Below the pieces are notes generated by a model that worked only from the letters and a program-made list of their open reading frames with translations, did no database searches and was not told the DNA's origin. A stretch of DNA of 48,903 nucleotides from an uncultured Saprospiraceae bacterium. Lineage in GTDB: Bacteria; Bacteroidota; Bacteroidia; Chitinophagales; Saprospiraceae. Positions 451 to 46,085 of this stretch are shown here, one piece after another. The position numbers and the translations under genes were made by a program. The stretch is from NCBI GenBank assembly GCA_937967625.1, contig CALCJP010000093.1:1-48903 (forward strand), given 5' to 3'. The stretch's first letter is position 1; every line of letters begins with the position of its first letter.

Positions 451-503
451 TCCGATAATTTTAGATTATCGGATAATCAATCACATTTGCCGAAAGGCTA
501 AAA
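451..503. repeat. 9-bp hairpin tccgataat/attatcgga (451-473) plus GNRA mini-hairpin unit catttgcc-GAAA-ggctaaaa (484-503)
   Basis: The 20-mer at 484-503 is identical to 44763-44782. Confidence 0.85.
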
Positions 504-506
504 AAA

Positions 507-2360
507 TTATTTAACCATTTCTAACGACTTGTAGATGAACTCGGTCAAGTCGCTTCCTGTAAGCATATTTTGATGAAGGAGTGCTAAATTGAAGAAGTAC
601 TCCGCCAACTCTCCTTGCTTTTTGCCTTTTGCAGCGAGCAGTTTTTTAGCGACTAAAGGGTGATTCGCATTTACCGTAAGGTTATAAGAATCAGGCATTT
701 CGCCTAAATTCATGCCGTTCATGGCTTGCATTTCTTTCATGCGGCGCATAAACTCAGGACGCGTAATCTGCACTGGCGGCGAATCAGGAGAAAGTGATTT
801 GACTTGAATCGTCACGTTACCTTTTCCTTCTGTCAATTTTTCAAAAACACCTTTTACTTTCTCCTCTTCTTTCTCGTTGAGAACGGACTCTTGCTTTTCA
901 TCTTTTTCAATCAAGTTGTCAATCGTATCTGAATCCACTCGCTTGAATGAAATGTCTTGACGTTTGTATTCCAACTGCTGAATGAAGTGATTGTCAATCA
1001 TGGTGTCGAGTAGCACCACATCATAACCTGCGTCGGTTGCATTCTTAATATAAAGGTCGTGCTGCTCTTTGTTGTTAGTATAAAGGATGATGGTTTTATC
1101 ATACTTATTGGTCTGAGTCGCTTTGATCTTTTCTACATACTCGTCCAATACCGCATACTCATCCTTACAGTTCTGAAGCAAAAGAAATTTTTGCGCCTTT
1201 TCGGCAAATTTCTCGTCAGAGATAAACCCATATTTGACAAATACGCCGAGGTCTTTCCACTTCTCTTCAAATGCATTTCTATCCTTTTTGAAAAGCTCGT
1301 GGAGTTTATCCGCTACTTTTTTAGTGATGTAGCCAGTAATCTTTCGCACGTTGCTGTCACTTTGCAAGTAACTTCGAGATACATTGAGCGGAATGTCAGG
1401 GGAATCAATCACCCCATGCAATAATGTCAGCCATTCAGGTACAATTTCTTTTACATCATCGGTGACATAGACTTGATTGCAATACAACTGAATTTTATTC
1501 CGCTGCACCTCAAACGAGTTGCTCAACTTCGGAAAGTAGAGGATTCCCGTAAGGTTAAATGGATAATCAATATTCAAGTGAATGTGAAACATTGAGTCAC
1601 CACTAAATGGATGTAACTCCTTATAAAAAGACTGATAATCTTCTTCTGAAAGTTCGCTTGGGTTCTTTTTCCAAGCAGGAGTCGGGTTGTTGATGATGTT
1701 ATCAACTTCGGTTTCTACTTTATCATCACCTTCTCCTTCCCATTCTTTGCGCGTTCCGAATTTGATAGGCACTGGTAAGAAGCGGCAATACTTAGTAAGA
1801 AGCTCTTCGATTCTATTTTTATCTAAGAACTCTTTGCCTTCTTCTCCGATATGCAAAACGATATCTGTTCCTCTATCTTTCTTTTTAATGTCTGCCAATT
1901 CATATTCAGGCGAACCAGTGCAAGTCCATTGAACTGCTTTTGATTTTGGGCGCCATGACTTTGTGTTGACCTCTACTTTATCTGCAACCATAAAAGCAGA
2001 ATAGAAGCCCAAACCGAAATGACCAATGATACTTGCATCATCTTTAAACTTATCCAACCACTCGCTCGCACTCGAAAAAGCAATCTGATTAAGGTATTTC
2101 AGAACTTCTTCTTCAGACATCCCGATACCTTTGTCACGAATCGTAAGTGTTTTTGCCTCTTCATTTAAAATGATTTCGAGAGTCGTATCTCCGATTTCAT
2201 TTTTTAGTTCGCCTTTATTGGCTAATAATTTCAATTTAGTAGTCGCATCAATAGCATTTGCGATAAGCTCTCTAAGAAAAATTTCCTGGTCAGCGTACAG
2301 GAATTTCTTGATAATTGGAAAGATATTTTCCGTTTGTACTGATATGTTACCCTTTTGCAT
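507..2360 (-). CDS. htpG: Molecular chaperone HtpG (Hsp90 family)
   Basis: 617-aa ORF with GHKL ATPase motifs (FLRELIANAIDA, IGHFGLGFYSAFMVA) and full-length middle and C-terminal Hsp90 regions. ATG at 2358-2360. Confidence 0.95.
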   Translation of the reverse strand: MQKGNISVQTENIFPIIKKFLYADQEIFLRELIANAIDATTKLKLLANKGELKNEIGDTTLEIILNEEAKTLTIRDKGIGMSEEEVLKYLNQIAFSSASEWLDKFKDDASIIGHFGLGFYSAFMVADKVEVNTKSWRPKSKAVQWTCTGSPEYELADIKKKDRGTDIVLHIGEEGKEFLDKNRIEELLTKYCRFLPVPIKFGTRKEWEGEGDDKVETEVDNIINNPTPAWKKNPSELSEEDYQSFYKELHPFSGDSMFHIHLNIDYPFNLTGILYFPKLSNSFEVQRNKIQLYCNQVYVTDDVKEIVPEWLTLLHGVIDSPDIPLNVSRSYLQSDSNVRKITGYITKKVADKLHELFKKDRNAFEEKWKDLGVFVKYGFISDEKFAEKAQKFLLLQNCKDEYAVLDEYVEKIKATQTNKYDKTIILYTNNKEQHDLYIKNATDAGYDVVLLDTMIDNHFIQQLEYKRQDISFKRVDSDTIDNLIEKDEKQESVLNEKEEEKVKGVFEKLTEGKGNVTIQVKSLSPDSPPVQITRPEFMRRMKEMQAMNGMNLGEMPDSYNLTVNANHPLVAKKLLAAKGKKQGELAEYFFNLALLHQNMLTGSDLTEFIYKSLEMVK

Positions 2361-2425
2361 GAGTTATTTTAATTTTTTCTAATAAATACACAAGTCAATT
2401 TTTTCAATTGATGTGCCACTGCTTT

Positions 2426-2449
2426 TTGACTGACAAATTGACTGACAAA
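2426..2449. repeat. Perfect tandem 12-mer ttgactgacaaa x2 in the htpG upstream region
   Basis: 2426-2437 is identical to 2438-2449. It lies 66-89 nt upstream of the htpG ATG; an inverted ttgact copy sits at 2391-2398. Confidence 0.8.
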
Positions 2450-2498
2450 GAGGCGGTTAAATTCAATAGATTTCTTTAATGCTAAGCAACATATTAAT

Positions 2499-2514
2499 TT
2501 TTCCTTTCGGAAAA
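2499..2514. repeat. Mini-hairpin ttttcc-TTTC-ggaaaa (inverted GAAA unit)
   Basis: 6-bp perfect stem in the htpG upstream spacer. Confidence 0.8.
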
Positions 2515-2872
2515 TGCGCTTTACGATGTCACAAAAAGTGCAATTATTGGAAAAACAATGCCTGCATTCCCCATAGATTTGTGTCGTTATTTAGATGAGG
2601 AAGCAAACACATAGAAAAAGATTTATGCCTCAGTTGTGCTAATATAGTTTTGCCCCCAAAGACACTATATTATTTTCTTACAGAATTTTATTTGGCACAG
2701 TTTTGGTCATTTTCCTATGTAAATAAAAGAAGGGCTTTACAAAATTTTCCCCACCGATTTTTCCTTCCCTTCCTAATTCATTTAAAACATCCCTATACCG
2801 TAAAGAGGTGTCAATTGACATTTCGAAAAAGAACTTTGATTAATATAATCCTTAATGCATGTATTTGTATGC

Positions 2873-2886
2873 ATTTCGAAAGAAGT
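2873..2886. repeat. Mini-hairpin atttc-GAAA-gaagt
   Basis: 5-bp stem with one G:U. Confidence 0.55.
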
Positions 2887-2910
2887 CGAGAGTCAGAAGT
2901 GGCTTGAGAC

Positions 2911-2966
2911 AGTGAGTGAGACCAGTTCATTTGGGGGGTAGAGCTGGTCTTAAACTCACTTTTTTT
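2911..2966 (+). terminator. Plus-strand intrinsic terminator with no credible upstream CDS
   Basis: Outer stem agtgagt/actcact, inner stem agaccagttc/gagctggtct (G:U allowed), then T7 (2960-2966). Confidence 0.6.
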
Positions 2967-3176
2967 AAAAATCAGATCCTTAAACATATCATAAAGGGCG
3001 TAAGAATTAATTTTCTTGCGCCCTTTTTCTATTCTCAAGGACATTACGGTCAGTTGATTCTCTATGGCTCGAGACATTTCAGAATTAAATAACTTACCTT
3101 TGCGACTGAAAAACTTACCCACCTTCAAAATCCCACTCAAATTTATTTTTCCAGAACGAACATATCTGCTTCTTTT

Positions 3177-6167
3177 ATGAAAACCATAAGTCTGACACTA
3201 TTAGCACTCTTTATACATGTTTTGGCTTTCAGTCAAATAATTTATGTCAAACAAAATGGAACAGGCAACGGAGACTCTTGGGCAACTGCATTAGGAGACT
3301 TACAGACTGCCTTACAAAATGTGCAATTTGGAGAAGAAATTTGGGTTGCCACAGGTAATTATAAGCCCACAGTTTGCACAGTATGTGGAGAGCCTGAAAG
3401 AAACCTTCCTTTTACTGTCCCCAATGGAGTCAAATTATATGGAGGTTTTGTGGGGACTGAATCTGCAGTGGACGAAAGAAATATCTCTCAAAACTTAACC
3501 ATATTAAGCGGTGATATAGATAATGACAATACTTTAGCAAATAATTCCTACACAATAGTCTATACCGAAAATGTTTCTAATCAAACGGTAATTGATGGAT
3601 TCACCATTCAACAAGGCAACGCCGATTTTCCTAATGCAGCAGCTGGAGATAGACATACAAGTGGAGCAGGTTTTTTCAATAAAGGAGAGCAGGCAACTTT
3701 CGAATCTCATCCAATCATCAGAAACTGCATTTTTGCTCAAAACTATGCCGTTGGCTTAGGTGGTGCCTTCTATTCGAATGGAGGTTTTAGTGGAAAAACT
3801 ACACCTGTCTTTGAGAATGTTTCTTTTGAGAATAATGCTGCAAAGGGTGATGGAGGGGCATTTTACGGCTATGGCAGTTTTAGCGGTCTCTGTAATCCTG
3901 AATTTAGAAACTGCCTATTTGTAAATAATAAATCAGAAGAAGGAAATGGTGGAGCCATCGCAAATTCTGGCGCAGAGCAAGGAGTTGTAAACGCCATTAT
4001 AGAAGATTGTCAGTTTGAACTAAATGAAGCTTTTAATAAAGGAGGTGCTCTTTATAGTTTTGGAAAAACTGGACAAGCGAATCCTCGAATAAAAAGATGT
4101 ACGCTCATATTTAACACTGCAAAAGATGGAGGTGCGATTTATTCTGACGGAAGTTTCTCAGGTAGTGCTGTGCCTGTTTTTGAAAATTCATTTTTTGAGA
4201 ATAATTCATCTACTGAATCAGGAGGAGCCTTCGAAGGCGACGGTTCTTTTGAAGGAGTGAGTAGTCCCGTGTTTAAAAATTGCCGATTTTTCAAAAACAG
4301 TTCCACGAATAGACATGGCGGAGCTATTGCGAATTCAGGAACTGCCGGAGGAACGGCTCATGCTAAGATAGAAGATTGTGAGTTTGAGGGAAATGAGGCG
4401 AAAGTGAACGGAGGTGCTTTATTTAATTTTGGAAATAATGGACATAGCAATCCAATTGTAAAAAGATGTTTGTTTAGAAAAAATTTGGCGGAAGAGGGTG
4501 GAGCTATTTATTCTGATGCGAGTTTTTCAGGAGAAAGTAGTCCAGCAGTTTCTGATTCTGAGTTTATAGAGAACGAAGTGATTGGAGATGGCGGAGCTAT
4601 TTACAACTCAGCTTCAGGAGGTGGTCTTTCTCAAGGAGTATTCGAAAGATGTCTTTTTGAAAATAATAAATGTGCTAACGCCGGAGGAGCAATATTGAAC
4701 AATGGGGCGGATGGCAACTGTCGCTCAAAGTTTTCAAATTGTGAGTTTATTAGGAACAGCACCCCAAATTATGGCGCTGCAATGTATAATATTGGAAACA
4801 GCGGGCGCTGTAATCCAGAAATATATAATTGCCTTTTCGCAAAAAACAGAGCGTTCTCTGCCGGAGCTATCTATAATTTAGGATCCAGTTACGGAGAAAG
4901 TAGCCCATTGATTACCAACTGTACATTCTTTAAAAATTCTGCTGAAGTTGGCAGTACTATATATTGCAATGCAACCGATTCGACAGGTTTGAGTGCGCCA
5001 ATTATTACGAACTCTGTTTTTTATGAAAACTTTGCACCCACAGGTCGTGTCTTTAGACTGATTTATGGAAAACCTACGGTAAGTTACTGTTCATTTGACA
5101 TTGATGATTGTTCCATTTTGAATGATGGAATAAATGGGGATGTAAATTGTGGTGATGGATTGATATTCACAAATGAGTTGTTGTTTGAAGACACACTGAG
5201 TCAACATTATAATCTAAAGGCAGGAACTTCGATTATTGATGCAGGAAACAGTCAAGCTACCCAAGCTGCTAATATCCAGTTTGACTTAGATGGCAATCCA
5301 CGAATCGTTAACTCAGTAGTGGATTACGGGGCTTTTGAATACAGTAGTGGCGTAGTGCCACCTCCAACAATTATTGAAAATCCACAATCAGAAAATCTTT
5401 GTGAAGGAGCAAGTCATTCGTTGAGTTTAGAAGTTGATAATTTAACCAACGTAACGTTTCAGTGGAAAAAAGATGATGCACCTATCGCCGGAGCTGTCAA
5501 TAAAGAATTGATATTTAATTCAATAAATTTAGCTGATAGGGGGGAGTACACCTGTCTGGTGTCTAACCAGAGTAGTTCGGTAGAAAGTGCCGCGGCGACT
5601 ATTTCTGTAACTGAAAATCTATCACTTGAAATTGAAATTATTCACCCCGACACAGTTATTTGTGAAGGCGAAGAAGTAAGTTTTGAGGCAAATATAAATT
5701 TTCCAGGAATGAATCCAGTTTTTGAGTGGAGTATTAATGGACAATCAATTCCTAACTCTAATGACTCAACTTTCACGTCAAGTGAATTACTTAATACAGA
5801 ACAAATCAGATGCACTTTTCTTTCTTCTGAAAGATGTGTAGTTGAAAATCCAATAATTTCGGATCCAATAATTATTGAAACGAAAGACTGTAGTGTAGGC
5901 ACCAGTTCAGTCTTCAAAAGCAATTCAGTAATAATCTATCCGAATCCAGTAAAAGATCACCTCAATATCTCTATTAAAACCCTTGCCCAAGGAGGAGTTG
6001 TCAAAATTTATAATATGCAAGGCAGCGAATTAGCCAGCCAAAAAGTTATAAAGAACGATATCTCAAGAGAATTAATTTTTGATATTAAAGACTACCCAAC
6101 CGGAGCTTATTCGATTCAAATTATCGACGGATTGCTCTCCTCCACTAAGCTTTTTATAAAAAAATAG
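3177..6167 (+). CDS. Secreted right-handed beta-helix protein with Pmp-type (GGAxY) coils, Ig-like domains and a T9SS type A C-terminal sorting domain
   Basis: Signal peptide MKTISLTLLALFIHVLAFSQ. Beta-helix start IYVKQNGTGNGDSW..IWVATGNY. About 14 repeated F.NN.A..GGAIY units. Ig I-set-like TFQWKKDD..GEYTCLVSN. The C-terminus IIYPNPVKDHLNISI..GAYSIQIIDG..LFIKK matches the Por_Secre_tail pattern. Confidence 0.85.
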   Translation: MKTISLTLLALFIHVLAFSQIIYVKQNGTGNGDSWATALGDLQTALQNVQFGEEIWVATGNYKPTVCTVCGEPERNLPFTVPNGVKLYGGFVGTESAVDERNISQNLTILSGDIDNDNTLANNSYTIVYTENVSNQTVIDGFTIQQGNADFPNAAAGDRHTSGAGFFNKGEQATFESHPIIRNCIFAQNYAVGLGGAFYSNGGFSGKTTPVFENVSFENNAAKGDGGAFYGYGSFSGLCNPEFRNCLFVNNKSEEGNGGAIANSGAEQGVVNAIIEDCQFELNEAFNKGGALYSFGKTGQANPRIKRCTLIFNTAKDGGAIYSDGSFSGSAVPVFENSFFENNSSTESGGAFEGDGSFEGVSSPVFKNCRFFKNSSTNRHGGAIANSGTAGGTAHAKIEDCEFEGNEAKVNGGALFNFGNNGHSNPIVKRCLFRKNLAEEGGAIYSDASFSGESSPAVSDSEFIENEVIGDGGAIYNSASGGGLSQGVFERCLFENNKCANAGGAILNNGADGNCRSKFSNCEFIRNSTPNYGAAMYNIGNSGRCNPEIYNCLFAKNRAFSAGAIYNLGSSYGESSPLITNCTFFKNSAEVGSTIYCNATDSTGLSAPIITNSVFYENFAPTGRVFRLIYGKPTVSYCSFDIDDCSILNDGINGDVNCGDGLIFTNELLFEDTLSQHYNLKAGTSIIDAGNSQATQAANIQFDLDGNPRIVNSVVDYGAFEYSSGVVPPPTIIENPQSENLCEGASHSLSLEVDNLTNVTFQWKKDDAPIAGAVNKELIFNSINLADRGEYTCLVSNQSSSVESAAATISVTENLSLEIEIIHPDTVICEGEEVSFEANINFPGMNPVFEWSINGQSIPNSNDSTFTSSELLNTEQIRCTFLSSERCVVENPIISDPIIIETKDCSVGTSSVFKSNSVIIYPNPVKDHLNISIKTLAQGGVVKIYNMQGSELASQKVIKNDISRELIFDIKDYPTGAYSIQIIDGLLSSTKLFIKK

Positions 6168-7379: not shown

Positions 7380-7414
7380 TAAGAACCACTCAGTCATAAA
7401 GACCGAATTGATTG

Positions 7415-7424
7415 CCCTTACGGG
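7415..7424. repeat. Mini-hairpin ccc-TTAC-ggg (inverted GTAA unit)
   Basis: 3-bp GC stem with partial T/A clamp (ttgccc..gggaaa). Confidence 0.5.
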
Positions 7425-7537
7425 AAATGTGGTTGTATAAACTTAGAGCAGTAGGAAAGATTAAAGACCGCAATCAAATTTCGTCTTTACAATTAATTTG
7501 AAAATAAATTAACTCCCTTGTTGTAAAAGGCGTTGAC

Positions 7538-10020: not shown

Positions 10021-10078
10021 CATGATTTTTTCGGCTTTCGCCAAATAAGCGCATTTCGCGAAAGCGAGAAAAAACATG
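10021..10078. repeat. Compound element: outer stem catgatttttt/aaaaaacatg enclosing ggc-TTTC-gcc (10033-10042) and ttcgc-GAAA-gcgag (10054-10069)
   Basis: 10032-10046 is the inverted copy of the 15-mer atttggcgaaagccg seen at 34783 and 34847. Confidence 0.8.
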
Positions 10079-15477: not shown

Positions 15478-15500
15478 AGAAAAATTGTTTAAAAGTATAA

Positions 15501-15540
15501 AAAGTGCTGATTTTCGAAAGGAAGTCAGCACTTTTTGTTT
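15501..15540 (+). terminator. Intrinsic terminator after the 1784-aa adhesin gene, capped by a GAAA tetraloop
   Basis: A continuous 15-bp stem aaagtgctgattttc/gaaggtcagcacttt-like (two G:U), with loop GAAA 15516-15519, followed by tttttgtttt. Confidence 0.75.
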
Positions 15541-15567
15541 TAAGCCAAAAAACAAAACAAAATTTTT

Positions 15568-15588
15568 ATTTCTCCCCTTTCGGGAAAT
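15568..15588. repeat. Mini-hairpin attt(ctc)ccc-TTTC-gggaaat followed by T-run
   Basis: ccc/ggg core plus attt/aaat clamp, with a 3-nt bulge. Confidence 0.6.
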
Positions 15589-15678
15589 TATTTTTTTTGT
15601 TGATCGGACATTAATCGAAATATGCTCCCAATAAATACATAGTATTTTTTAGCATTTGAAATCTCCTTCAAAAATGTT

Positions 15679-15690
15679 CCCCGAAAGGGG
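15679..15690. repeat. Mini-hairpin cccc-GAAA-gggg
   Basis: 4-bp GC stem, GAAA loop. Confidence 0.7.
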
Positions 15691-15734
15691 GTAAAAAATG
15701 GCGATGTAAGTTTTTTCTATCCCGAATGTTTGCC

Positions 15735-17199: not shown

Positions 17200-17262
17200 A
17201 TTTCCCCTTTCGGGAAATCGCTTGTCCCGATTTATCGGGGATCATATTTCGCGAAAGCGAAA
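17200..17262. repeat. Composite repeat (copy D) in the atpB-atpE spacer: atttccc-cTTTC-gggaaat, cccgat..atcggg, tttcgc-GAAA-gcgaaa
   Basis: Three consecutive hairpins. It shares cttgtcccga..tcggg blocks with 28101, 31243 and 42977. Confidence 0.85.
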
Positions 17263-17272
17263 CTTAACTTGA

Positions 17273-25423: not shown

Positions 25424-25486
25424 CATGTCTGTAATTGTGATTAGAATTGCTTTTAAGCCTTCCTTTAGCGTTCACAATTGGTAACA

Positions 25487-25502
25487 TTCCACGAAAGTGG
25501 AA
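25487..25502. repeat. Mini-hairpin ttccac-GAAA-gtggaa
   Basis: 6-bp perfect stem. Confidence 0.85.
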
Positions 25503-25564
25503 CGAGTATTTTAAGAGCTAACCATATTAAGGTGCAAACTTTTTTAGTTCTCCCCTTATTTCAA

Positions 25565-28100: not shown

Positions 28101-28160
28101 TTTATGCTTTCGCAAAATGACGTCATTTCGCGAAAACTTGTCCAATATTTTATATCGGGA
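28101..28160. repeat. Composite repeat (copy B), partly decayed
   Basis: tgc-TTTC-gca, then acgtcatttcgcgaaaacttgtcc (22/24 identical to 42996-43019), then the degenerate tcc..cggga arm. Confidence 0.75.
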
Positions 28161-29230: not shown

Positions 29231-29319
29231 GATAGGAGTTTATGGTTGACAATTGCAGGTTATCTGCCATAAAAGATTGAGCCGCAAAGGTACGGGTTAA
29301 ATCCCCTTAAATGTGATTT

Positions 29320-29404
29320 GACGGAAGTCTATTTTTCCGAAAGGAAATAAAAATGGGTCAGACTTATATTGAGATTTGACGAAAGTCAAATGCCCCTTTC
29401 GGGG
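29320..29404. repeat. Cluster of four mini-hairpins: gac-GGAA-gtc, tttcc-GAAA-ggaaa, atttgac-GAAA-gtcaaat, cccc-TTTC-gggg
   Basis: 29320-29329, 29334-29347, 29374-29391, 29393-29404. Confidence 0.85.
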
Positions 29405-29427
29405 AATGTTGGGAAAGAGCAGGCTGT

Positions 29428-31185: not shown

Positions 31186-31242
31186 GATTTTTTCGTTTTG
31201 TAGGAAATAATTTGGACGCAAATTAAACATTCAGCAGTACTT

Positions 31243-31285
31243 TTCCGCTTTCGCGGAATGACGTTATCCCGATTAAAAATCGGGA
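31243..31285. repeat. Composite repeat (copy C): ttccgc-TTTC-gcggaa + aatgacgt + tcccgatt-aaa-aatcggga
   Basis: 6-bp and 8-bp perfect stems, followed by gcgaaaa as in copies A and B. Confidence 0.85.
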
Positions 31286-31350
31286 GCGAAAAATAATAAA
31301 TCATTTGAACCCAAACTTCTCTAAAGTTGCCTAATTACGCATCTTTGTGT

Positions 31351-31360
31351 CGCTTTCGCG
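31351..31360. repeat. Mini-hairpin cgc-TTTC-gcg
   Basis: 3-bp stem, short copy. Confidence 0.5.
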
Positions 31361-31508
31361 GAAAACGTGAATTGAAGTTGTTTAAGAATAGGTTTTAGAG
31401 GCGAAAATTTGAGGTTGAAGGTTCTGAAGAAGTCAAATTTTCAAAATCGGATTTGCAGCTTAAAAGCTATTTTTAAATAACTTCATTAATCAAAAATAAC
31501 TTGAGAAA

Positions 31509-33188: not shown

Positions 33189-33195
33189 CCATATT

Positions 33196-33239
33196 TCGCG
33201 AAAGCGATGAAACCGTAGCCTGAGCGAAGCCGAAGGCTA
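33196..33239. repeat. tcgc-GAAA-gcga unit (33196-33207) and agcc-GAA-ggctaaa variant (33228-33240 region)
   Basis: Degenerate members of the cgc and gcc subfamilies in the ettA-sucB spacer. Confidence 0.55.
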
Positions 33240-34628: not shown

Positions 34629-34631
34629 TTC

Positions 34632-34643
34632 TTCCTTTCGGAA
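34632..34643. repeat. Mini-hairpin ttcc-TTTC-ggaa just after the sucB stop
   Basis: 4-bp stem. Confidence 0.6.
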
Positions 34644-34690
34644 AAAATCCGCTATGAGCGCCACCGCGTGGTGAATCTCTAAATGGAACA

Positions 34691-34781: not shown

Positions 34782-34861
34782 CATTTGGCGAAAGCCGCCT
34801 CAGCTTTGAGCGTCATCTTCTTAGAGAGACAAGCCTCAAATAAATCATTTGGCGAAAGCCG
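34782..34861. repeat. Two direct copies of the 16-mer catttggcgaaagccg (34782-34797 and 34846-34861)
   Basis: Identical 16-mers 64 nt apart. The second encodes the last codons and stop of sucA. Confidence 0.9.
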
Positions 34862-37622
34862 TATCAATAATAGCTTGCTGCTCTTTCTCATGCCGCTTTT
34901 TGAAACCTGTCGCAGGAGAAGCACTTGCTTTCCTTGCCGCCAATTTCATTGGCACTTTTGAGCAGTAATGGAAAATCATGTGTTGCCATGCACCCATGTT
35001 GGCGGGTTCTTCTTGTACCCAGATGACTTCGGCACCTTTATATTTTTTGAAGACAGCTTCCAATTGTTTTTCCGGCAACGGATACAATTGCTCAATGCGA
35101 ACGATAGCGACATCGTCTCTTTTATCTGCTTCTTTTTGAGCCAACAAGTCGAAGTAGATTTTACCGGAGCAAAGCAACAAGCGCTTGACTTTTTTAGCAG
35201 CTTTTGCGTCCATGCTTGGGTCATCCAATACTTCTTGGAATTTATTTCCCGTCTCGAAGTCTTTGAAATCAGAAATACACTGAGGATGGCGCAACAATGA
35301 TTTGGGCGACATCACAATCAATGGTTTTCTAAATGGTCGCTCCAATTGTCTTCGCAACACGTGGAAGAAGTTGGCAGGAGAAGTGATATTGGCAACTGTT
35401 ACGTTCTTTTCAGCGCAACCTTGCAGGAAGCGTTCGAGGCGGGCACTTGAGTGCTCCGGTCCTTGCCCCTCGTAGCCGTGGGGGAGCAACATGATTAAGC
35501 CGCTCATGCGTTGCCATTTCGATTCGGCAGCCATGATGTATTGATCGACCATTACTTGAGCGCCGTTGTAGAAGTCACCAAACTGTGCTTCCCAAATCAC
35601 CAAGGCATCGGGCGTTGCCAAAGAGTAACCATATTCAAATCCAAGCACAGCAAACTCAGAGAGTAGCGAGTTGAAAATTCGATATTGTCCTTGATCGGTA
35701 CTCATGCCATGCAAGCGATTCAACTCCTCATATCCTTTTACATCTCTGAAAATCGCGTGGCGGTGACTGAAGGTTCCGCGTTTGACATCTTGACCGCTCA
35801 TGCGCACATCTTTGCCTTCGAGCATGATGGAGCCATAGGCTAATAATTCGGCGAAAGCCCAATCCAATTGCTTTTTGTCAAGCAATTTTTGTGCATTCTT
35901 TAGCAAGCGATTCACTTTGCCGAGAGGCGTAAAGTCCTTTGGCAAAGTCATCAGGTGATTCAAAACCTTTTGAATCGTTTTCTTATCGATTCCCGTAGCA
36001 GGGGAGGTTTCGTAATCCTTATGTGTGGTTTGTTTTTTTAATTTTTTCCACGCCAATTCTGGTTCTTGGTGGTCATAAGGAAGTGGTTTTTGGCGCACAT
36101 TATCTAAGCGATCTTGAAGAAATGCCCAAAACTCTTTATCTAATTTTTCCGCCATGCTCTTATCTACATCGCCTCTTTTCGTCAAAGTATCCACATAAAT
36201 CTCACGTGGATTTTTATGGTTCTTGATGAAAGAGTACATCTCTGGTTGCGTGAATTTTGGGTCATCTCCTTCATTGTGACCATGCTTGCGATAGCAAACC
36301 ATGTCGATGAAAACATCGTTGTTGAAAACCTGACGATATTCCAATGCCAATTCGGCTGCGAAAATCACCGCTTCAGGATCATCTCCATTTACATGAAATA
36401 CCGGTGCTTGCACCAAACTCGCTGCGGCAGTACAGTAAGTTGACGAACGCGCATCTTCAAAATCAGTGGTAAAACCAACCTGATTATTGATGACATAATG
36501 GATTGTTCCGCCAGTGTAGTAGCCATCCAATTGGCTAAACTGAACAGTCTCATAAGTCACGCCCTGACCCGCAACAGCCGCATCTCCATGAATCAAAATC
36601 GGAAGGATTTTGTCATAGTCACTCTTATAAAGAATGTCTGCTTTCGCTCTCGCAAAACCTTCTACCACCGGGTTGACTGACTCCAAGTGAGATGGGTTAG
36701 GAACGAGTTTGAGGTTCATCGTCTTACCACTGATTGTTGGCAATTGACCTGAAAATCCTAAGTGATATTTTACATCGCCGTCGCCATAGATTTCATCTGG
36801 CACAGCGGTTCCTTCAAATTCGTTGAAAATTTGGTCATAGGTTTTGCCCATGATATTTGCCAACACATTCAAGCGCCCACGGTGCGCCATACCGATGATG
36901 GTTTCCTTGACGCCTAATTCAGCACCTGCATTGATGATGGCGTCCAAAGCGGCAATCGTTGACTCTCCTCCTTCGAGTGAGAATCGTTTTTGACCGATAT
37001 ATTTTGTGTGGAGGAATTTTTCGAAATTAACGGCGCCATTTAGCTTTTCTAAAATACGCTTCTTTTTTTCTTTGCTTAAGCCAAAATCGCTTGAGAGGTT
37101 TCTGTTTTCGATTCTTTCACGAAGCCATCTTCTTTTTGCGCGACTTTCTATCTGATGATATTCGAAGCCGATGTTGCCGCAATAAATTGTTTTGAGTTTA
37201 TCGACGATTTGGCGCAATGTGGCATTTTCTAAACCGATTTCGCCCCCTGCTTGAAAGACTCGATCCAAGTCATTTTCCGAAAGGTCATAATCAGCCAAGT
37301 CCAAATGAGGGCGACGGTCGCGTCGTTCTCTGATGGGATTGGTGGTCGAAGCCAAATGTCCACGATTACGGAACCCTTTGATGACGCTGAATACTTTCAA
37401 CTCATCTTTGAAAAGGTCAGCAGAAACTTTGGCTGCTGCGCCATTGGTAGCAGCTCCGTTGGTCGCGCCATTCGCGTGCTCGTCTGCGTGATTGTGATAT
37501 TCGAAACCTTTGAAGAAGGTGCGCCAATTTTCCTCGACAGAGGTAGGGTCTGCTGTATATTTTTCATACATGCCTTCGATGAAGGTCGGGTGCGCATTTG
37601 CTATGAATGAATAATCTGCCAT
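34845..37622 (-). CDS. sucA: 2-oxoglutarate dehydrogenase E1 component
   Basis: 925 aa. N-terminal ANAHPTFIEGMYEKY, the ThDP-binding region GDAAVAGQGV, and the C-terminal transketolase-like region. Confidence 0.95.
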   Translation of the reverse strand: MADYSFIANAHPTFIEGMYEKYTADPTSVEENWRTFFKGFEYHNHADEHANGATNGAATNGAAAKVSADLFKDELKVFSVIKGFRNRGHLASTTNPIRERRDRRPHLDLADYDLSENDLDRVFQAGGEIGLENATLRQIVDKLKTIYCGNIGFEYHQIESRAKRRWLRERIENRNLSSDFGLSKEKKKRILEKLNGAVNFEKFLHTKYIGQKRFSLEGGESTIAALDAIINAGAELGVKETIIGMAHRGRLNVLANIMGKTYDQIFNEFEGTAVPDEIYGDGDVKYHLGFSGQLPTISGKTMNLKLVPNPSHLESVNPVVEGFARAKADILYKSDYDKILPILIHGDAAVAGQGVTYETVQFSQLDGYYTGGTIHYVINNQVGFTTDFEDARSSTYCTAAASLVQAPVFHVNGDDPEAVIFAAELALEYRQVFNNDVFIDMVCYRKHGHNEGDDPKFTQPEMYSFIKNHKNPREIYVDTLTKRGDVDKSMAEKLDKEFWAFLQDRLDNVRQKPLPYDHQEPELAWKKLKKQTTHKDYETSPATGIDKKTIQKVLNHLMTLPKDFTPLGKVNRLLKNAQKLLDKKQLDWAFAELLAYGSIMLEGKDVRMSGQDVKRGTFSHRHAIFRDVKGYEELNRLHGMSTDQGQYRIFNSLLSEFAVLGFEYGYSLATPDALVIWEAQFGDFYNGAQVMVDQYIMAAESKWQRMSGLIMLLPHGYEGQGPEHSSARLERFLQGCAEKNVTVANITSPANFFHVLRRQLERPFRKPLIVMSPKSLLRHPQCISDFKDFETGNKFQEVLDDPSMDAKAAKKVKRLLLCSGKIYFDLLAQKEADKRDDVAIVRIEQLYPLPEKQLEAVFKKYKGAEVIWVQEEPANMGAWQHMIFHYCSKVPMKLAARKASASPATGFKKRHEKEQQAIIDTAFAK

Positions 37623-38916: not shown

Positions 38917-38926
38917 TCAACTAATT

Positions 38927-40245: not shown

Positions 40246-41307
40246 TTGTTTCGCCGTTTTTTAAAAGCATTTTTTCAAATTTGCGGTTCAAATCTAAAAT
40301 ACTTGAATTTCTTTCAAAACATACATTTTGTCAATTGGTGGGTTTTGGGTTTTCTACTCCTACTTCCGCTGATTTATTGGTGGTATTATCGCTCGCTTTC
40401 GCGAAATAGGCTGACATTGCGAATGCCCAATATCGGTAGCTTTCAGCAGACCGGTTCGTGGAGAAGTCGTTTGCGAAAACTCTTGCCATTGCTCAGAGTG
40501 TTGGCGTTGGGGGCGCTAATTTTTGCATTAGCGCGACCTCAGAAAACACTCAAAGAAGAAGACATCAAAGCAGAAGGCATTGATATTTTCTTAGTGATGG
40601 ATTTGTCGCGCAGTATGCTTTCCAGAGATTTTGACCCTGATCGATTGGAGGTGAGCAAGCAGGTAGCTGCCAATTTCGTTGACAAACGCCCCCACGATCG
40701 AATTGGGCTAACCATTTTCTCCGGCGAAGCATTCACCCAATGTCCCCTCACCACCGACCATCGAATTGTAAAAGAATTTTTATCAACCCTCCAATGTGGA
40801 TTTTTAGCAGATGGAACTGCCATCGGCATGGGGCTGAGTAGCGCCGTCAACCGAATTAAAGATTCCAAATCAGAGTCAAAAGTCGTCATCTTGCTTACTG
40901 ATGGCGTCAATAATTCAGGCTACATCCAACCGATGACGGCTGCCGAAATTGCAAAAAAATTTGCCGTTAAGGTCTATACGATTGGTGTGGGAAGCACGGG
41001 CATGGCGCGCTCGCCCGTAAGAAAAAGAAGAGATGGAACTTTCGAATTTGATTTCACCAGAGTTGAAATTGATGAAGCATTGCTCCGACAAATTGCCGAA
41101 CAAACCGGTGGAAATTATTTCCGCGCCACCAATGAAACCGAGTTAGGACGTATCTATGATTACATCGACAAGTTAGAAAAAACAGAAATAGATGTTACCG
41201 TCATCAAGCGACACAGTGAGATGTTTCATCCTTTTGCGCTTGCTGCTTTGATTTTGATTTTATTGGAAATTCTTTTGAAGCAAACTGTTTTGAGAAGTTT
41301 GCCGTAA
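40246..41307 (+). CDS. batA: VWA-domain membrane protein, BatA-like
   Basis: N-terminal TM WWVLGFLLLLPLIYWWYY, a VWA MIDAS motif DIFLVMDLSRSM..LLTDGVNN, and a C-terminal TM. The start is uncertain: no ATG is available, candidates are TTG 40246 or TTG 40303. Confidence 0.75.
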   Translation: MFRRFLKAFFQICGSNLKYLNFFQNIHFVNWWVLGFLLLLPLIYWWYYRSLSRNRLTLRMPNIGSFQQTGSWRSRLRKLLPLLRVLALGALIFALARPQKTLKEEDIKAEGIDIFLVMDLSRSMLSRDFDPDRLEVSKQVAANFVDKRPHDRIGLTIFSGEAFTQCPLTTDHRIVKEFLSTLQCGFLADGTAIGMGLSSAVNRIKDSKSESKVVILLTDGVNNSGYIQPMTAAEIAKKFAVKVYTIGVGSTGMARSPVRKRRDGTFEFDFTRVEIDEALLRQIAEQTGGNYFRATNETELGRIYDYIDKLEKTEIDVTVIKRHSEMFHPFALAALILILLEILLKQTVLRSLP

Positions 41308-41385
41308 GGCGAAAAATAATTGATTCTTACATTTAGCCTTTCGGCAAATGAAATACTTTCTCGCTCATTTGCCGTAAGGCTAAAA
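41296..41385. repeat. Three gcc/ggc-subfamily units: tttgcc-GTAA-ggcgaaa (41298-41313), inverted atttagcc-TTTC-ggcaaatg (41331-41350), catttgcc-GTAA-ggctaaaa (41366-41385)
   Basis: The inverted copy is 19/20 identical to the 20-mer at 484 and 44763. The first copy contains the batA-like stop codon. Confidence 0.85.
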
Positions 41386-41483: not shown

Positions 41484-42977
41484 ATGAATAAAACAGCGAT
41501 TTGGTTAATTATTGGATTGATGGGATTGGCATTGATAGGTAGTATGTACCTACAAGCCAAGTGGATCAGTGATTCGATTAAGACCAATGAAGAGCAGTTT
41601 GATAAAAGTGTTTTCGCTGCGCTCAACGCCGTTTCCAATCACCTCGAAAATGTAGAAAAAAAAGAAGCCTTTCATTACATGAATGGGTATTCGACTATTT
41701 ATTTTGAGAAAGAAGTTGTGAGGCGTGAGGGAAATAGCTCCATAAAAGTTGACTTTTCTTACGAAGAGGTTTCTGGTAATGAAAACTTAGATGTTCTCGA
41801 AAATAATTGCCAATGTGCCAAATGCGTCAGTGAGCGAACTGCCAAGTTTGCCAGAATGATGCGTTTCAATGAGCAAATTCATGGAATTCCGATAGCAGAG
41901 CGGGTTTCTGATTTAGATATGCTTAGCACTTTTATGCACAAGGAGTTAGCCAACCATGCGATTCATATTGATTACAACTACGGCGTTTATTCCAATAAGG
42001 AAAAAAGTTTGGTGATTACAGACGACCACTTTGTGGTAGAAGATAGCAGTCCGCGAGTCGTTCAGGCAGGGCATAAAAACTTGATTACTTCCAATTATAA
42101 AGTCGATCTTTTTAGAGAAGACATCCCTTCTCCGGGGTTGTTGATGATTTATTTTCCGAACAAAAGCGAGTATGTCTGGGGTTCGGTTTGGCGTAACTTG
42201 CTTGCGGCACTACTTTTCACAGCTATCATCATGTTTTGTTTTGGATATACGATCAATGTAATTTTCCATCAGAAGAAACTGTCGGAGATGAAAGGAGATT
42301 TCATCAATAACATGACGCATGAGTTCAAGACACCGATAGCTACCATTTCACTGGCAGCCGATTCGATCACGAATCCATCTATTTTAGGTAGTCCTAATAA
42401 AGTGAAGCGCTTCGCAGACATCATCCGTCAAGAAAACAGACGGATGAATAGTCAGGTGGAAAAAGTGCTCCAAATGGCACGAATCGACAAACGTGATTTT
42501 GATCTAAAACTCACGCCACTCAACATGCATCAGGTCATCGAAGGGGCAGTTGCTAATTTTGCCTTACAGGTAGAAAAACGAGATGGAAAACTCGAAATGG
42601 ACTTGCAAGCATCGACTCCAACCATCGAAGGCGACCTCACTCACGTCACCAACATCATCCATAACCTAATGGACAATGCCAATAAATATTCTCCCGAAAA
42701 ACCCGAAATCACCCTCCGAACGCGCAACGTTCGCAATGGCGTAGAAGTAACCGTCGAAGATAAAGGAATGGGTATGAATCGCGAAGCCCTCAAAAATATC
42801 TTTGATAAATTCTACCGCGTCCACACCGGCGACTTGCATGATGTGAAAGGATTTGGACTGGGGCTGAGCTATGTGAAAGCTATCATGACTGCTCACAAAG
42901 GGCAGATTGATGTGAAGAGTAATTTAGGAAAGGGGAGTAAGTTTATCTTATTTTTCCCTTTTAAAGTGAGTGAATGA
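41484..42977 (+). CDS. Sensor histidine kinase (two TM helices, ~210-aa extracytoplasmic domain, HisKA + HATPase_c)
   Basis: H-box NNMTHEFKTPIATI, N-box HNLMDNANKYS, G-boxes EDKGMGM and GFGLGLSYV. Confidence 0.9.
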   Translation: MNKTAIWLIIGLMGLALIGSMYLQAKWISDSIKTNEEQFDKSVFAALNAVSNHLENVEKKEAFHYMNGYSTIYFEKEVVRREGNSSIKVDFSYEEVSGNENLDVLENNCQCAKCVSERTAKFARMMRFNEQIHGIPIAERVSDLDMLSTFMHKELANHAIHIDYNYGVYSNKEKSLVITDDHFVVEDSSPRVVQAGHKNLITSNYKVDLFREDIPSPGLLMIYFPNKSEYVWGSVWRNLLAALLFTAIIMFCFGYTINVIFHQKKLSEMKGDFINNMTHEFKTPIATISLAADSITNPSILGSPNKVKRFADIIRQENRRMNSQVEKVLQMARIDKRDFDLKLTPLNMHQVIEGAVANFALQVEKRDGKLEMDLQASTPTIEGDLTHVTNIIHNLMDNANKYSPEKPEITLRTRNVRNGVEVTVEDKGMGMNREALKNIFDKFYRVHTGDLHDVKGFGLGLSYVKAIMTAHKGQIDVKSNLGKGSKFILFFPFKVSE

Positions 42978-43042
42978 TTTCACTTTCGTGAAATACCGTC
43001 ATTTTGCGAAAACTTGTCCCGAAGTTACTTCGGGGGCGAAAT
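42977..43042. repeat. Composite repeat (copy A): atttcac-TTTC-gtgaaat + ccgtcattttgcgaaaacttgtcc + cccgaag-tta-cttcggg + gcgaaat
   Basis: Two 7-bp stems. It starts at the last base of the kinase stop codon. Confidence 0.85.
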
Positions 43043-44723: not shown

Positions 44724-44730
44724 AAAGTAG

Positions 44731-44815
44731 CACCCAAATAAATTTGGGTGTCGAAATCATCTCATTTGCCGAAAGGCTAAAACGTGTAAAATTTCCGCCC
44801 AAATAAATTTGGGCG
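44731..44815. repeat. Composite: palindrome cacccaaataaatttgggtg (44731-44750) - catttgcc-GAAA-ggctaaaa (44763-44782) - palindrome cgcccaaataaatttgggcg (44796-44815)
   Basis: The 16-nt core cccaaataaatttggg is repeated exactly and flanks a mini-hairpin unit. Confidence 0.85.
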
Positions 44816-44820
44816 CTACT

Positions 44821-45933
44821 ATGAACCAAGTCATCGGTCAAGAAAGGGTAAAACAGCAACTGCGCACAGCAGTCAATAGTGGTCGTATGTCGCATGCACA
44901 AATCCTATTGGGACCGAAAGGAGCAGGTGGATTAGCATTGGCGTTGGCAACTGCACAATACCTCCTTTGCCAAAACAAAACAGATGATAAAGTTTGTGGA
45001 ACCTGTCCTGCTTGCCACAAAGCTGCTAAAAACATTCACCCTGATATTCACTTTACGTTCCCTACCATCGGTGGAAAAGCGACGAGCGAAGACTTCATGA
45101 ATGAGTGGCGCTCGGCATTGGACGAAAGTCCTTATTTTGATGATTTCAAGTGGCTGCAAAAAATTGGTGGTGAGGGCAAGCAAGGCAACATCACCGCCCT
45201 CGAATGCAATCGAATGATTTCAAAATTAAGTTTGAAATCATTTGAAAGTCCTTATAAAGTTCAGATCATCTGGCAAGTTGAATATTTGCAAAAAGAAGGA
45301 AATCGCCTCCTCAAACTCATAGAAGAGCCACCGGCGAATACTTACTTTTTGCTTATTGCTCATGATTCTGATCAGGTGCTCAACACTATCCTTTCAAGGT
45401 GTCAAATTGTGAAATTTGGGGCACTTAAAGACACTGAAATTGCAGCTGCCTTGCAGCAACGCAATCAGGTTTCTGAAGAAAAAGCGAACTCAATCGCGCA
45501 CTTGGCAGATGGTAGTTTTTCGGAAGCACAAAGCATTTTGCAGCATGCAGATGACGAAAACAGTGTGAATCGTAGCGCACTATTTCTTGACTGGCTACGA
45601 AAGTGTTATCTTGGCGACGGCGTTGCAATGACCAAATTATCGGAAGCACTGGCGAAGCTCGGAAGAGAGCCGCAAAAGTTTTTCTTGCGATACGGTCTGC
45701 ATTTTTTTCGAGAATTTTTGTTTTTTAAGACAACGGGAACGGAAAATGTGCGACTTTTGCCATCAGAACTTGAAACCGCTCGTAAGATGAATCAAGTTCT
45801 CGATTTTGAAAAAGTGGAAAAAATCACGCAATTGTTTTCAGATTGCATTTATCATGTAGAGCGAAATGCGAATCCAAAAGTGCTATTTTTAGACGCTTCG
45901 ATTCAACTGAATAAGATTTTCAGACGTTCCTGA
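44821..45933 (+). CDS. holB: DNA polymerase III subunit delta'
   Basis: GRMSHAQILLGPKGAGGLALA, zinc module CGTCPACHK, LLKLIEEPP and SRCQ. Start set at ATG 44821 (MNQVIGQ). Confidence 0.85.
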   Translation: MNQVIGQERVKQQLRTAVNSGRMSHAQILLGPKGAGGLALALATAQYLLCQNKTDDKVCGTCPACHKAAKNIHPDIHFTFPTIGGKATSEDFMNEWRSALDESPYFDDFKWLQKIGGEGKQGNITALECNRMISKLSLKSFESPYKVQIIWQVEYLQKEGNRLLKLIEEPPANTYFLLIAHDSDQVLNTILSRCQIVKFGALKDTEIAAALQQRNQVSEEKANSIAHLADGSFSEAQSILQHADDENSVNRSALFLDWLRKCYLGDGVAMTKLSEALAKLGREPQKFFLRYGLHFFREFLFFKTTGTENVRLLPSELETARKMNQVLDFEKVEKITQLFSDCIYHVERNANPKVLFLDASIQLNKIFRRS

Positions 45934-45964
45934 TTACGAGTGATTTTTTCAAATTTGAAACACG

Positions 45965-46016
45965 GATAGAGTGAAGTTGAATGATTTTGTAGATAAATGT
46001 ACTCTATCGATTTTTT
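45965..46016 (+). terminator. Possible terminator after holB (large loop)
   Basis: 8-bp stem gatagagt/actctatc with a 28-nt loop, followed by T6. Confidence 0.4.
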
Positions 46017-46027
46017 AACTTGAAGGT

Positions 46028-46085
46028 GCTTTTCACTTTCGTAAAATATTGATAATCAATGTTTTACGAAAGTAAAATAAAAAGC
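46028..46085. repeat. Compound element: gctttt/aaaagc outer stem, tttcac-TTTC-gtaaaa (one mismatch), palindrome attgat-a-atcaat, ttttac-GAAA-gtaaaa
   Basis: 46030-46047, 46048-46060, 46062-46077. Same inverted-pair layout as 20475-20538. Confidence 0.8.

Follow-up and report, generated by a model that had tools for sequence, protein, structure and literature searches.

Repetitive extragenic palindromic (REP) elements, with their RAYT (TnpA-REP) transposases, are known from E. coli, Pseudomonas and Stenotrophomonas, and the cognate transposase gene usually has REPs on its flanks. Structurally, a REP is defined as a short hairpin whose 5′ foot is a conserved tetranucleotide (PMC6006769). They measure 21–65 nt, and their basal stem has at least 6–7 paired bases (PMC6006769) or 6–9 bp (PMC3733652). 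Head-to-head and tail-to-tail dimers, bacterial interspersed mosaic elements (BIMEs) and hairpin-forming REP doublets (REPINs) are typical of them (PMC3733652, PMC6006769), and subfamilies within the known REP families differ by compensated changes in the stem (PMC6006769, supplementary file 2). The REP-like hairpins of TnpA-Y1 subclass 2.6 have feet such as GTTC and ATTC in Bacteroides xylanisolvens (PMC6006769, supplementary file 2). A separate line of work concerns the mini-hairpin d(CGGCGAAAGCCG), which melts at 89 °C, resists nucleases and excludes single-stranded DNA-binding protein (SSB) (PMC13037366). Here we describe a family of hairpin repeats, capped by GAAA on a C:G pair, in contig CALCJP010000093.1 of an uncultured Saprospiraceae bacterium, and compare it with these systems. 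The whole stretch analysed, 48,903 nt, is called the window.

Is this family real? A preliminary description of the window had reported about 33 small hairpins saturating its spacers, with inner stems that change in compensated fashion. The coordinates and sequences that it quoted are all correct. We counted perfect hairpins of the pattern NNC-(GAAA or TTTC)-GNN and compared them with 300 dinucleotide-preserving shuffles. The 5,181 nt of spacer hold 26, against 0.31 ± 0.55 in the shuffles (maximum 3); the excess over shuffled spacers, on which the claim had been made to depend, is therefore present and far above chance. The 43.7 kb of coding sequence (CDS) hold 9, with 1.98 expected. Among the 68 non-coding hairpins with a 4-nt loop and a stem of at least 4 bp, C-GAAA-G and C-TTTC-G together account for 16 and every other loop class for at most 2. 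On 3-bp stems closed by C:G, the loop is GAAA in 26 cases, GTAA in 2, GGAA in 1 and each other sequence in at most 2.

Our 29 spacer cores, three GTAA units and one GGAA unit match the hand count of 33 units in 18 spacers. One of these is the loop of a canonical terminator (15501–15540), which does have CGAAAG as its loop, and one GTAA unit (41297–41314) overlaps a stop codon. The four loop variants seen are all GNRA, as had been said of loop variants in general, though four copies are the whole basis of that rule. In an ungapped alignment of the 29 spacer cores (27 distinct copies), the two inner stem positions form pairs in all 27, of four to five types each. Covariation scores 0.567, compared with 0.208 in shuffles, none of 500 shuffles reaching the observed value, and shifting the partner by one column lowers pairing from 85% to 51–57%. 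The identities over longer stretches, a 15-mer and a 20-mer, likewise hold; the 20-mer of the unit at 485–502 recurs identically at 44763–44782.

A structure-plus-fixed-loop family confined to the spacers was thus correctly perceived. Unit density is 0.21 per kb in open reading frames (ORFs) and 4.4 per kb in non-ORF DNA. Coding copies do occur, as had been reported, but most of them may be background, since 0.21 per kb resembles the 0.14 per kb of syntenic relatives that lack the family. The units are not a CRISPR array, being scattered over 18 spacers in both orientations with no regularly spaced direct repeats, and they do lack a GTAG head, their feet being ATTT, ATTC, GTTT or GTTC. Nor can they be given the name of a known repeat or RNA family: Rfam covariance models gave 0 matches in the window at the gathering score and four chance matches at E ≤ 5, none of them on a unit. 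The top one, snoR31 (15400–15546), covers only the canonical terminator at 15501–15540. We conclude that the pattern is a real, striking, lineage-specific repeat family. The preliminary description had missed its asymmetric 5′ foot, its head-to-head rule with 24-nt spacing, its lineage restriction and its conservation in place.

What does a unit consist of? Read on the strand that carries GAAA, the consensus is 5′-RTTY (mostly ATTT)-nn-C-GAAA-G-n′n′-(R/A-rich). The unit is about 14–22 nt long with a stem of 3–7 bp, and many copies have only 3 pairs. The outer stem had been described as always TTT over AAA; it is in fact asymmetric. On the 5′ side ATTT hardly varies (A 21, T 27, T 28 and T 24 of 29 copies), whereas the 3′ arm is looser (A in 16, 19 and 22 of 29), rich in A/G and passing into an A-tract. 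In 18 of the 27 distinct copies the conserved 5′ A has no pairing partner, and the GG subfamily keeps its ATTT without any 3′ complement (ATTTGGCGAAAGCC at 34783, 34847 and 37849). The foot is therefore no stem arm: a minimal 3-bp hairpin carries at its 5′ foot a tag of conserved sequence, ATTT or, in more general terms, RTTY.

Which strand is constrained? Non-Watson–Crick stem positions on the GAAA strand are G.T in 16 cases and A.C in 3, regardless of the direction of local transcription. Even where the GAAA strand is antisense to local transcription, in 14 units, the wobbles number 9 G.T to 0 A.C, so that the constrained strand follows the element and not the mRNA. By DNA parameters the GAAA strand folds more stably than its complement in 28 of 29 units, and by RNA parameters in 25 of 29. 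About ten inner-stem subfamilies can be told apart, with copies identical over 14–22 nt; similarity between spacers reaches only 14–23 nt. Five copies of the GC subfamily have in common a stem-breaking T that plays no structural role.

The arrangement of the units also follows a rule. Of neighbouring units in one spacer, nine pairs are (−,+), two (+,+), two (+,−) and one (−,−), and in 8 of the 11 multi-unit spacers the outermost units are (−,+), feet facing each other (p = 0.0012). Three pairs have the exact form CTTTCGnnAAAT-N6-ATTTnnCGAAAG with cores 24 nt apart; a degenerate CGAAAA partner stands at the same distance in two more cases. Both members belong to the same subfamily in 4 of the 9 head-to-head pairs (p = 0.02), and three pairs, either head-to-head or of a unit with a degenerate partner, are self-complementary over 28–40 nt. 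About 36 nt of the region 28101–28143 are similar to 42984–43019. Overall the orientations are near equal, 15 and 14. GAAA points to the nearest gene in 21 of 29 units (p = 0.024), a weaker bias that the head-to-head rule probably underlies. Base skew was ruled out as its cause, being too weak: with units masked, A and T on the sense strand number 552 and 458 upstream of starts, and 297 and 288 downstream of stops.

A second small repeat keeps company with the units. This is a (cttgt)CCCGA-loop-TCGGG hairpin, found at 17226–17239, 31268–31284 and 43018–43034, and within a gene at 37972–37988. In spacers it always adjoins GAAA units. TGACGTYAT often precedes it (28118–28126, 31259–31267), and in two copies it appears to be nested in an interrupted unit, ATTTnnCGAAAA...GYGAAAT.

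How far does the family extend beyond the window? Counted per kb of non-ORF DNA, the window has 4.40 units, and contigs of the same lineage from three independent runs (ERR9287625, SRR25760724 and SRR25727943) have 5.2; units are present in relatives at 96% AtpG identity, and assembly ERZ6863697 contains relatives of the lineage. The density falls to 0.17 in syntenic relatives (AtpG 77–78%, AtpB 75–78%), to 0 in 1.46 kb from relatives with 81–91% TrhO identity, and to 0.03 in 80 Bacteroidota atp loci comprising 163 kb of non-ORF DNA in total. The family is lineage-restricted.

The units are, moreover, extra DNA. The window block from PorP to OmpA is syntenic with two relatives, L092 and L086. 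In its part from PorP to atpG the unit-bearing spacers are all longer in the window than in L092, L093, L094 or L086, by 40–77 nt. The TPR-CHU spacer, which holds the dimer at 10029–10070, measures 116 nt against 41 nt in L092; the atpB–atpE spacer 112 nt against 35 nt in L092, L093 and L094; the atpH–atpA spacer 123 nt against 74 and 63 nt in relatives; and the atpA–atpG spacer 104 nt against 64 and 78 nt. Unit-free spacers of the same block show no such surplus, at 111 versus 93 nt and 46 versus 73 nt. The TPR-CHU spacer can be read as a clean insertion between TTTTTTTC and AAAA. This is suggestive, yet we claim no general target site, because that alignment is approximate and single units lack a 5′ T-tract. 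In the spacer downstream of GPx a unit lies between two perfect copies of a 16-nt hairpin, CCCAAATAAATTTGGG, of which a 92% relative (L102) has one, the gene downstream of GPx in that relative being different from that of the window. Around the units there is no general pattern of target duplication.

Each 16-nt repeat (44733–44748 and 44798–44813) is a hairpin with a TAAATTTG box, and the 49-nt segment between them holds the unit. The second repeat ends 8 nt before the likely ATG of holB (44821), so that the leader of this gene would be very short or absent.

What becomes of a unit once it is in place? The atpA–atpG dimer is kept in two relatives that carry units, L082 and L083, despite an atpG nucleotide identity to the window of only 87%. 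Within that spacer the unit positions are identical at 28 of 28, against 60 of 81 elsewhere (Fisher p = 0.0015). Between the two units, the linker of an 87%-identity relative shows a net insertion of 5 nt; the 24-nt spacing itself is therefore not constrained. Relatives at 81–91% identity conserve the promoter box and leader upstream of trhO, and all the window units of that spacer lie outside the conserved block. We rejected L095 (TrhO 91%) as an orthologous unit-free spacer, because its upstream gene differs and only the promoter-proximal part is orthologous; it is used as density evidence only.

What process could have produced such a family? We favour a family of miniature palindromic repeats, REP/BIME-like and specific to this lineage, which a trans-acting enzyme specific for hairpins would have spread in the form of single-stranded hairpin DNA, an explanation whose chances we judge to be evenly balanced. 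The units would have multiplied within one Saprospiraceae-like lineage by copy-and-paste of the single-stranded hairpin. The most plausible agent would be a HUH/Y1 (RAYT-like) enzyme, acting in trans and encoded elsewhere in the genome, that would read the foot and the shape of the hairpin and ignore the inner stem sequence, the GAAA-carrying strand being the one that folds. Units would have landed in spacers, mainly as head-to-head doublets. Single copies would then have been retained, possibly as useful or harmless hairpins at gene boundaries, resistant to nucleases and refractory to SSB.

We prefer the REP-like explanation because it accommodates the high density within a narrow lineage, the added DNA, the subfamilies, the footed hairpin, the head-to-head doublets and mosaics, and a polarity independent of transcription. 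Since known REP families also have compensated stem differences, the compensatory pattern requires no slow evolution in place. Among the roles that the preliminary description had listed, the comparative evidence thus favours the REP- or MITE-like one (MITEs are miniature transposable elements with inverted repeats), by virtue of the narrow lineage, the added DNA, the copy subfamilies and the head-to-head dimers. The mRNA 3′-end stabiliser and the terminator cap are weakened by the presence of separate terminators, the lack of a U-tract, the UUUC form taken in 3′ untranslated regions (UTRs) and the 9:0 wobbles of antisense units.

Several observations weigh against a REP-like origin. A Pfam search of all of the approximately 30 window proteins found no RAYT or other transposase, as had been reported, and so no Y1/HUH enzyme or other mobile-element gene within these 49 kb. 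The units carry no GT[AG]G or CGTC tag and, at 14–22 nt with stems of 3–7 bp, are shorter than any described REP (21–65 nt). The G.T:A.C asymmetry could reflect conservation of the foot sequence instead of pairing. A scan of the Joint Genome Institute (JGI) metagenome collection with a dimer pattern of 20 specified bases revealed no further carriers, its three matches all being long, unrelated perfect palindromes in high-GC contigs; the lineage is absent from that collection. The sole same-lineage comparison shows retention, not turnover, and no clean presence/absence polymorphism was obtained between very close strains. Conservation in place is not predicted for purely selfish DNA; the 28 of 28 identical positions, together with the ordinary post-stop hairpins of relatives, indicate a function at the level of the host. 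We conclude that the family is best placed close to the REP kind, as a putative, previously undescribed relative, and in none of the described families. The REPs of E. coli are thought to have been both mobilised and co-opted, and the explanations weighed here are not mutually exclusive.

Might the units work instead as RNA? Selected cis-acting hairpins, be they C(GNRA)G stabilisers, processing sites or sites for a lineage-specific RNA-binding protein or RNase, are a possible explanation that we nevertheless doubt. Cleavage in the AU-rich N6 linker of a head-to-head pair would leave a 3′ hairpin on the upstream product and a 5′ hairpin on the downstream one, and might, for example, set the ratios of the atp subunits. 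Units do lie between atp cistrons, where relatives have ordinary hairpins just past the stop codon; the 28 of 28 positions are kept, against 60 of 81, across 13% atpG nucleotide divergence; start-proximal units are GAAA-sense by 8:1; and C(GAAA)G is a specially stable RNA tetraloop, the GAAA strand folding, by RNA parameters, at a mean of −6.0 kcal/mol and its complement at −4.7. Yet 14 of 29 units give the local mRNA the weaker UUUC form, among them all six single units in the 3′ UTRs of convergent spacers, and the 9 G.T to 0 A.C of those 14 units amount to nine C.A mismatches in the mRNA. The distance to the start codon is unconstrained (12 to at least 290 nt), the five units upstream of trhO stand outside the conserved promoter and leader, and no Rfam family matches. 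Thousands of de novo sites, arriving as additions of 40–77 nt in one narrow lineage, are also hard to obtain by point mutation. Canonical terminators were rejected: the GAAA strand continues into A-rich sequence, the opposite strand has its T-run before the hairpin, and the same spacers contain separate terminators.

If the site is in DNA, need it be mobile? The units could be host sites, extruded or single-stranded mini-hairpins bound by a nucleoid protein, gyrase, primase or a hairpin-promoter polymerase, after the manner of gyrase and IHF at BIMEs or of the mini-hairpins of the phage G4 origin, RSF1010 ssiA and the phage N4 promoters. Known mini-hairpins exclude SSB and sit at the recognition sites of primase and N4 RNA polymerase (PMC13037366), and E. 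coli BIMEs bind gyrase, IHF and Pol I (PMC6006769). The polarity that tracks the DNA element and not transcription, and the head-to-head dyads with a fixed 24-nt core spacing, would fit. We nonetheless think such host sites distinctly unlikely. The 24-nt spacing occurs in only 3 (plus 2 degenerate) of the 9 head-to-head pairs and is lost in the 87%-identity relative; the orientations, 15 and 14, show no sign of a replication-strand bias; so short a stem needs strong supercoiling for extrusion; and there is no candidate partner protein. Less probable still, and in our estimate very unlikely, is a mutational by-product, in which a super-stable CGAAAG loop nucleates snap-back or template switching, with quasi-palindrome correction, and neither a dedicated enzyme nor a function is involved. 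Stem-loop self-templated extension is reported for some polymerases (PMC11292364). ‘Compensated’ stems would then form instantly, and all 29 spacer CGAAAG cores do have pairable flanks, whatever the inner sequence. However, the CGAAAG hexamer is itself over-represented (29 in spacers against about 2, on a rough estimate from base composition), the unpaired 5′ A and the RTTY foot are left unexplained, subfamilies share non-palindromic flanks and a conserved mismatch, the head-to-head layout and same-subfamily partners are not predicted, and close relatives of the same base composition are without units. Both of these readings explain fewer features than does the REP-like one. Chance, a compositional effect or an assembly artefact might be suspected in A/T-rich spacers with many TTTC and GAAA strings. 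It has next to no probability and is excluded by the 26 hairpins against 0.31 in dinucleotide-preserving shuffles, by relatives of similar G+C without units, and by the same units in independent assemblies of the three runs named above. In a bolder reading, which we regard as fairly improbable, the units would not be passengers of the RAYT type but a new kind of genome ‘punctuation’ or, alternatively, the smallest self-propagating DNA element yet seen, of about 14–20 nt. As punctuation, ultra-stable strand-specific mini-hairpins of single-stranded DNA or RNA, served by lineage-specific machinery, may stand head-to-head in spacers with the GAAA-reading strand always pointing into the adjacent gene, may owe their conservation to an action at gene boundaries, and may block read-in transcription or replication–transcription conflicts or mark priming or processing sites. 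As a minimal element, the units may embody a new foot-plus-tetraloop recognition code.

Two further candidates were set aside. In Bacteroidota, promoters show TTTG at −33 and a TAnnTTTG box at −7. Boxes of the TAnnTTTG type turn up in spacers that lack units and, near trhO, downstream of the cluster of units, so that the units themselves are not promoters. Nor are they transcription-factor operators, their centre being asymmetric and invariant while the inner bases of the would-be half-sites vary freely yet stay complementary.

The units and their settings are collected in table 1.

Table 1. Hairpin units and related features of the window. Two-letter names denote inner-stem subfamilies; strand is that of the GAAA reading.
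Feature	Position	Strand	Remarks
Unit, GC subfamily (ATTT-GC-CGAAAG-GC-TAAA)	485..502	+	8 nt past htpG stop
Unit, TC subfamily, 6 pairs	2498..2515	-	upstream of htpG
Weak unit, foot GCAT, TT inner stem	2871..2888	+	
GTAA-loop variant, ATTT foot	7411..7428	-	
Head-to-head dimer	10029-10046; 10053-10070	-; +	GG and CG; cores 24 nt apart; CTTTCGnnAAAT-N6-ATTTnnCGAAAG
CGAAAG loop of canonical 19-bp terminator (15501-15540)	15509..15526	+	foot GATT, hence probably not a family member
Unit, CC subfamily	15571..15588	-	head-to-head with 15676-15693, 105 nt apart, same subfamily
Unit, CC subfamily, foot GTTC	15676..15693	+	
Composite, atpB/atpE	17201..17263	-; +	unit 17201-17218 (-, CC), CCCGA..TCGGG hairpin 17226-17239, unit 17246-17263 (+, CG)
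Head-to-head dimer, atpH/atpA	18765-18782; 18789-18806	-; +	CT (two G.T pairs) and CA; cores 24 nt apart
Head-to-head dimer, atpA/atpG	20482-20499; 20506-20523	-; +	both CG; cores 24 nt apart
Unit, CA subfamily, foot ATTC	25486..25503	+	convergent spacer
Unit, TG, with degenerate head-to-head partner	28101..28143	-	unit 28101-28118; partner ATTTCGCGAAAA at +24 nt; cttgtcc module
Cluster of four units	29316-29333; 29332-29349; 29374-29391; 29390-29407	+; +; +; -	first has GGAA loop; all upstream of conserved trhO promoter and leader
Unit, CG subfamily, foot ATTC	31242..31259	-	followed by tgacgttat and CCCGA hairpin 31268-31284
Unit, CG subfamily, 3 pairs	31347..31364	-	
Unit, CG subfamily	33193..33210	+	4 nt past stop codon
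Unit, TC subfamily	34629..34646	-	directly after sucB stop, before shared bidirectional terminator
Unit, GG subfamily (ATTTGGCGAAAGCC)	34783..34800	+	3′ arm not complementary to foot
Unit, GG subfamily	34847..34864	+	overlaps last sucA codons
Three GC units	41297..41384	+; -; +	41297-41314 (GTAA, overlaps BatA stop), 41332-41349 (GAAA), 41367-41384 (GTAA)
Unit, CA, with degenerate partner	42977..43036	-	unit 42977-42994 overlaps stop codon; partner ATTTTGCGAAAA at +24 nt; cttgtCCCGA..TCGGG hairpin 43018-43034
Unit, GC subfamily	44764..44781	+	between perfect 16-nt direct repeats CCCAAATAAATTTGGG (44733-44748, 44798-44813)
Head-to-head dimer	46030-46047; 46061-46078	-; +	both TA; cores 31 nt apart
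Intragenic copy, full foot (ATTT-CG-CGAAAG-CG)	40390..40407	-	BatA/VWA gene
Other footed CDS copies	37849-37866; 35846-35863; 24263-24280		24263-24280 has GTAA

The window (G+C 40.7%) carries the housekeeping genes of a Bacteroidota organism: HtpG, a type IX secretion cargo, PorP, atpBEFHAG, two OmpA-like proteins, TrhO, sucA/sucB, PhoH, GPx, holB and Lpd. There are no tRNA genes in it. Its best AtpA match among 185,579 species genomes, at 84%, is to Saprospiraceae metagenome-assembled genomes. The OmpA-like proteins are paralogues in tandem (21674–23335 and 23660–25288), each with a DUF6089 beta-barrel, thrombospondin type 3 repeats and an OmpA C-terminal domain; L092 and L086 have a single OmpA-like gene in their place. 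Between htpG and the first type IX secretion cargo gene lie 816 nt (2361–3176) in which no ORF has a Pfam match. This gap is unusually long for so compact a window and holds only two weak or peripheral units.

Some spacers contain conserved elements of other kinds. Upstream of trhO (29240–29292, − strand) a TAccTTTG box, which we take to be the Bacteroidota −7 promoter box, is followed by the leader GGCAGATAACCTGCAATTGTCAACCATAA, nearly invariant down to 81% TrhO identity (L095, L096, L097, L100 and L101). Far more conserved than a typical 5′ UTR, this leader may be regulatory. The atpE–atpF spacer has a 38-nt hairpin (17525–17562, + strand), GGGTTAGCTACGAAAACGGTTGGTTTTTGGGCTAACCC, with a nearly invariant interior, CTACGAAAACGGTTGGTTTTTGG, and a compensated outer stem. 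It recurs in L092 (about 10226–10265) and L086 (about 7005–7045), at 75–78% AtpB identity, while the rest of the spacer has diverged; it has no Rfam match and may be a conserved RNA element of the atp operon. Upstream of the first OmpA-like gene (21563–21599, + strand) a hairpin-like TAGCCCGAAGAGTTGACAATG..CTCTTTGGGC is found also in L082, L092 and L086. The stretch downstream of it, acagt(t/c)(a/t)taagagttgattat, is likewise conserved in a spacer of 200–270 nt that is otherwise divergent.

Other repeats occupy the spacers of relatives. At about 520–590 in L095, upstream of trhO, a short motif of its own (CTCTGCG, CTCTGTG, CTCAGCG) stands where the window has GAAA units. Downstream of trhO in L100 (JGI 3300001102, 4381–4518; 82% TrhO identity) there are three tandem copies of about 42 nt (ggacaggatttttggattttacagg...ggcgaggacaagag), a different lineage-specific repeat. 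Related lineages may each carry different spacer repeats.

What would follow if the family is of the REP type? It would widen the forms that REPs are known to take, its unit being only 14–22 nt long, its foot not GTAG and its C(GAAA)G cap fixed, and would do so in a phylum where little REP biology has been described. One would then predict a cognate enzyme, specific for hairpins, whose recognition code is new and which could become a tool for single-stranded DNA. The family would also be a natural, genome-wide use of the ‘extraordinarily stable mini-hairpin’, so far known from a few phage and plasmid origins. Copies have been both recently gained (absent at 75–91% protein identity) and conserved in place (28 of 28 positions at 13% coding divergence), and the lineage is therefore a compact system in which to see how selfish repeats become useful to their host. 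In practical terms the units are a sharp lineage marker for metagenome binning and can trouble sequencing and assembly. Their interest is mainly for research on mobile elements and genome architecture.

How, then, does the family compare with what has been described? Intrinsic terminators and C(GNRA)G-capped RNA stabilisers likewise occur in UTRs and between cistrons, and the terminator at 15501–15540 has the same loop; the units differ in lacking a 3′ U-tract, in stems too short for termination and in an orientation independent of transcription. The mini-hairpins d(GCGAAAGC) and d(CGGCGAAAGCCG) of Hirao and co-workers (PMC13037366) have the identical core, GAAA on C:G with 2–4 G/C pairs. No exact copy of the 12-mer CGGCGAAAGCCG is present in the window, but its central 10-mer GGCGAAAGCC is found at 10033–10042 (− strand), 34787–34796 and 34851–34860. 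The known mini-hairpins are single sites in phage or plasmid origins or phage N4 promoters and lack the 5′ ATTT foot (PMC13037366). As regards MITEs, head-to-head units could act as terminal inverted repeats, and one unit is flanked by 16-nt direct repeats of which L102, with a different downstream gene, has a single copy; duplication around the units follows no general pattern.

The REP-like hairpins of TnpA-Y1 subclass 2.6, mostly from Bacteroidetes (PMC6006769), come from the same phylum and also have non-GTAG feet and dispersed copies. They have, however, stems of 8–10 bp and loops of 3–4 nt (TAT, TGC, GCA, TCT), and they are defined by lying next to a tnpA gene. The list of subclass 2.6 Bacteroidetes REPs (PMC6006769) holds no similar element, no C-GAAA-G cap and no 3-bp minimal stem. 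From REPs in general the units differ in their foot (RTTY, not GT[AG]G or CGTC), their length (14–22 as against 21–65 nt), their stem (3–7 as against 6–20 bp) and their fixed GAAA tetraloop on C:G. A REPIN consists of two mutually complementary inverted REPs that fold together as a single long hairpin. Of the 9 head-to-head pairs, the 4 of one subfamily are self-complementary over 28–40 nt, and the other 5 have unlike inner stems and so cannot form a long hairpin of this type. The likeness to REPs, BIMEs and REPINs is nonetheless extensive. The units are extragenic, dense and specific to a species or lineage, with a tetranucleotide at the 5′ foot; they fall into subfamilies with compensated stems and tolerate G.T on one strand; they occur singly, as inverted dimers, in mosaic clusters with other motifs and occasionally within genes; and, as with REPs, orthologous copies can persist between species.

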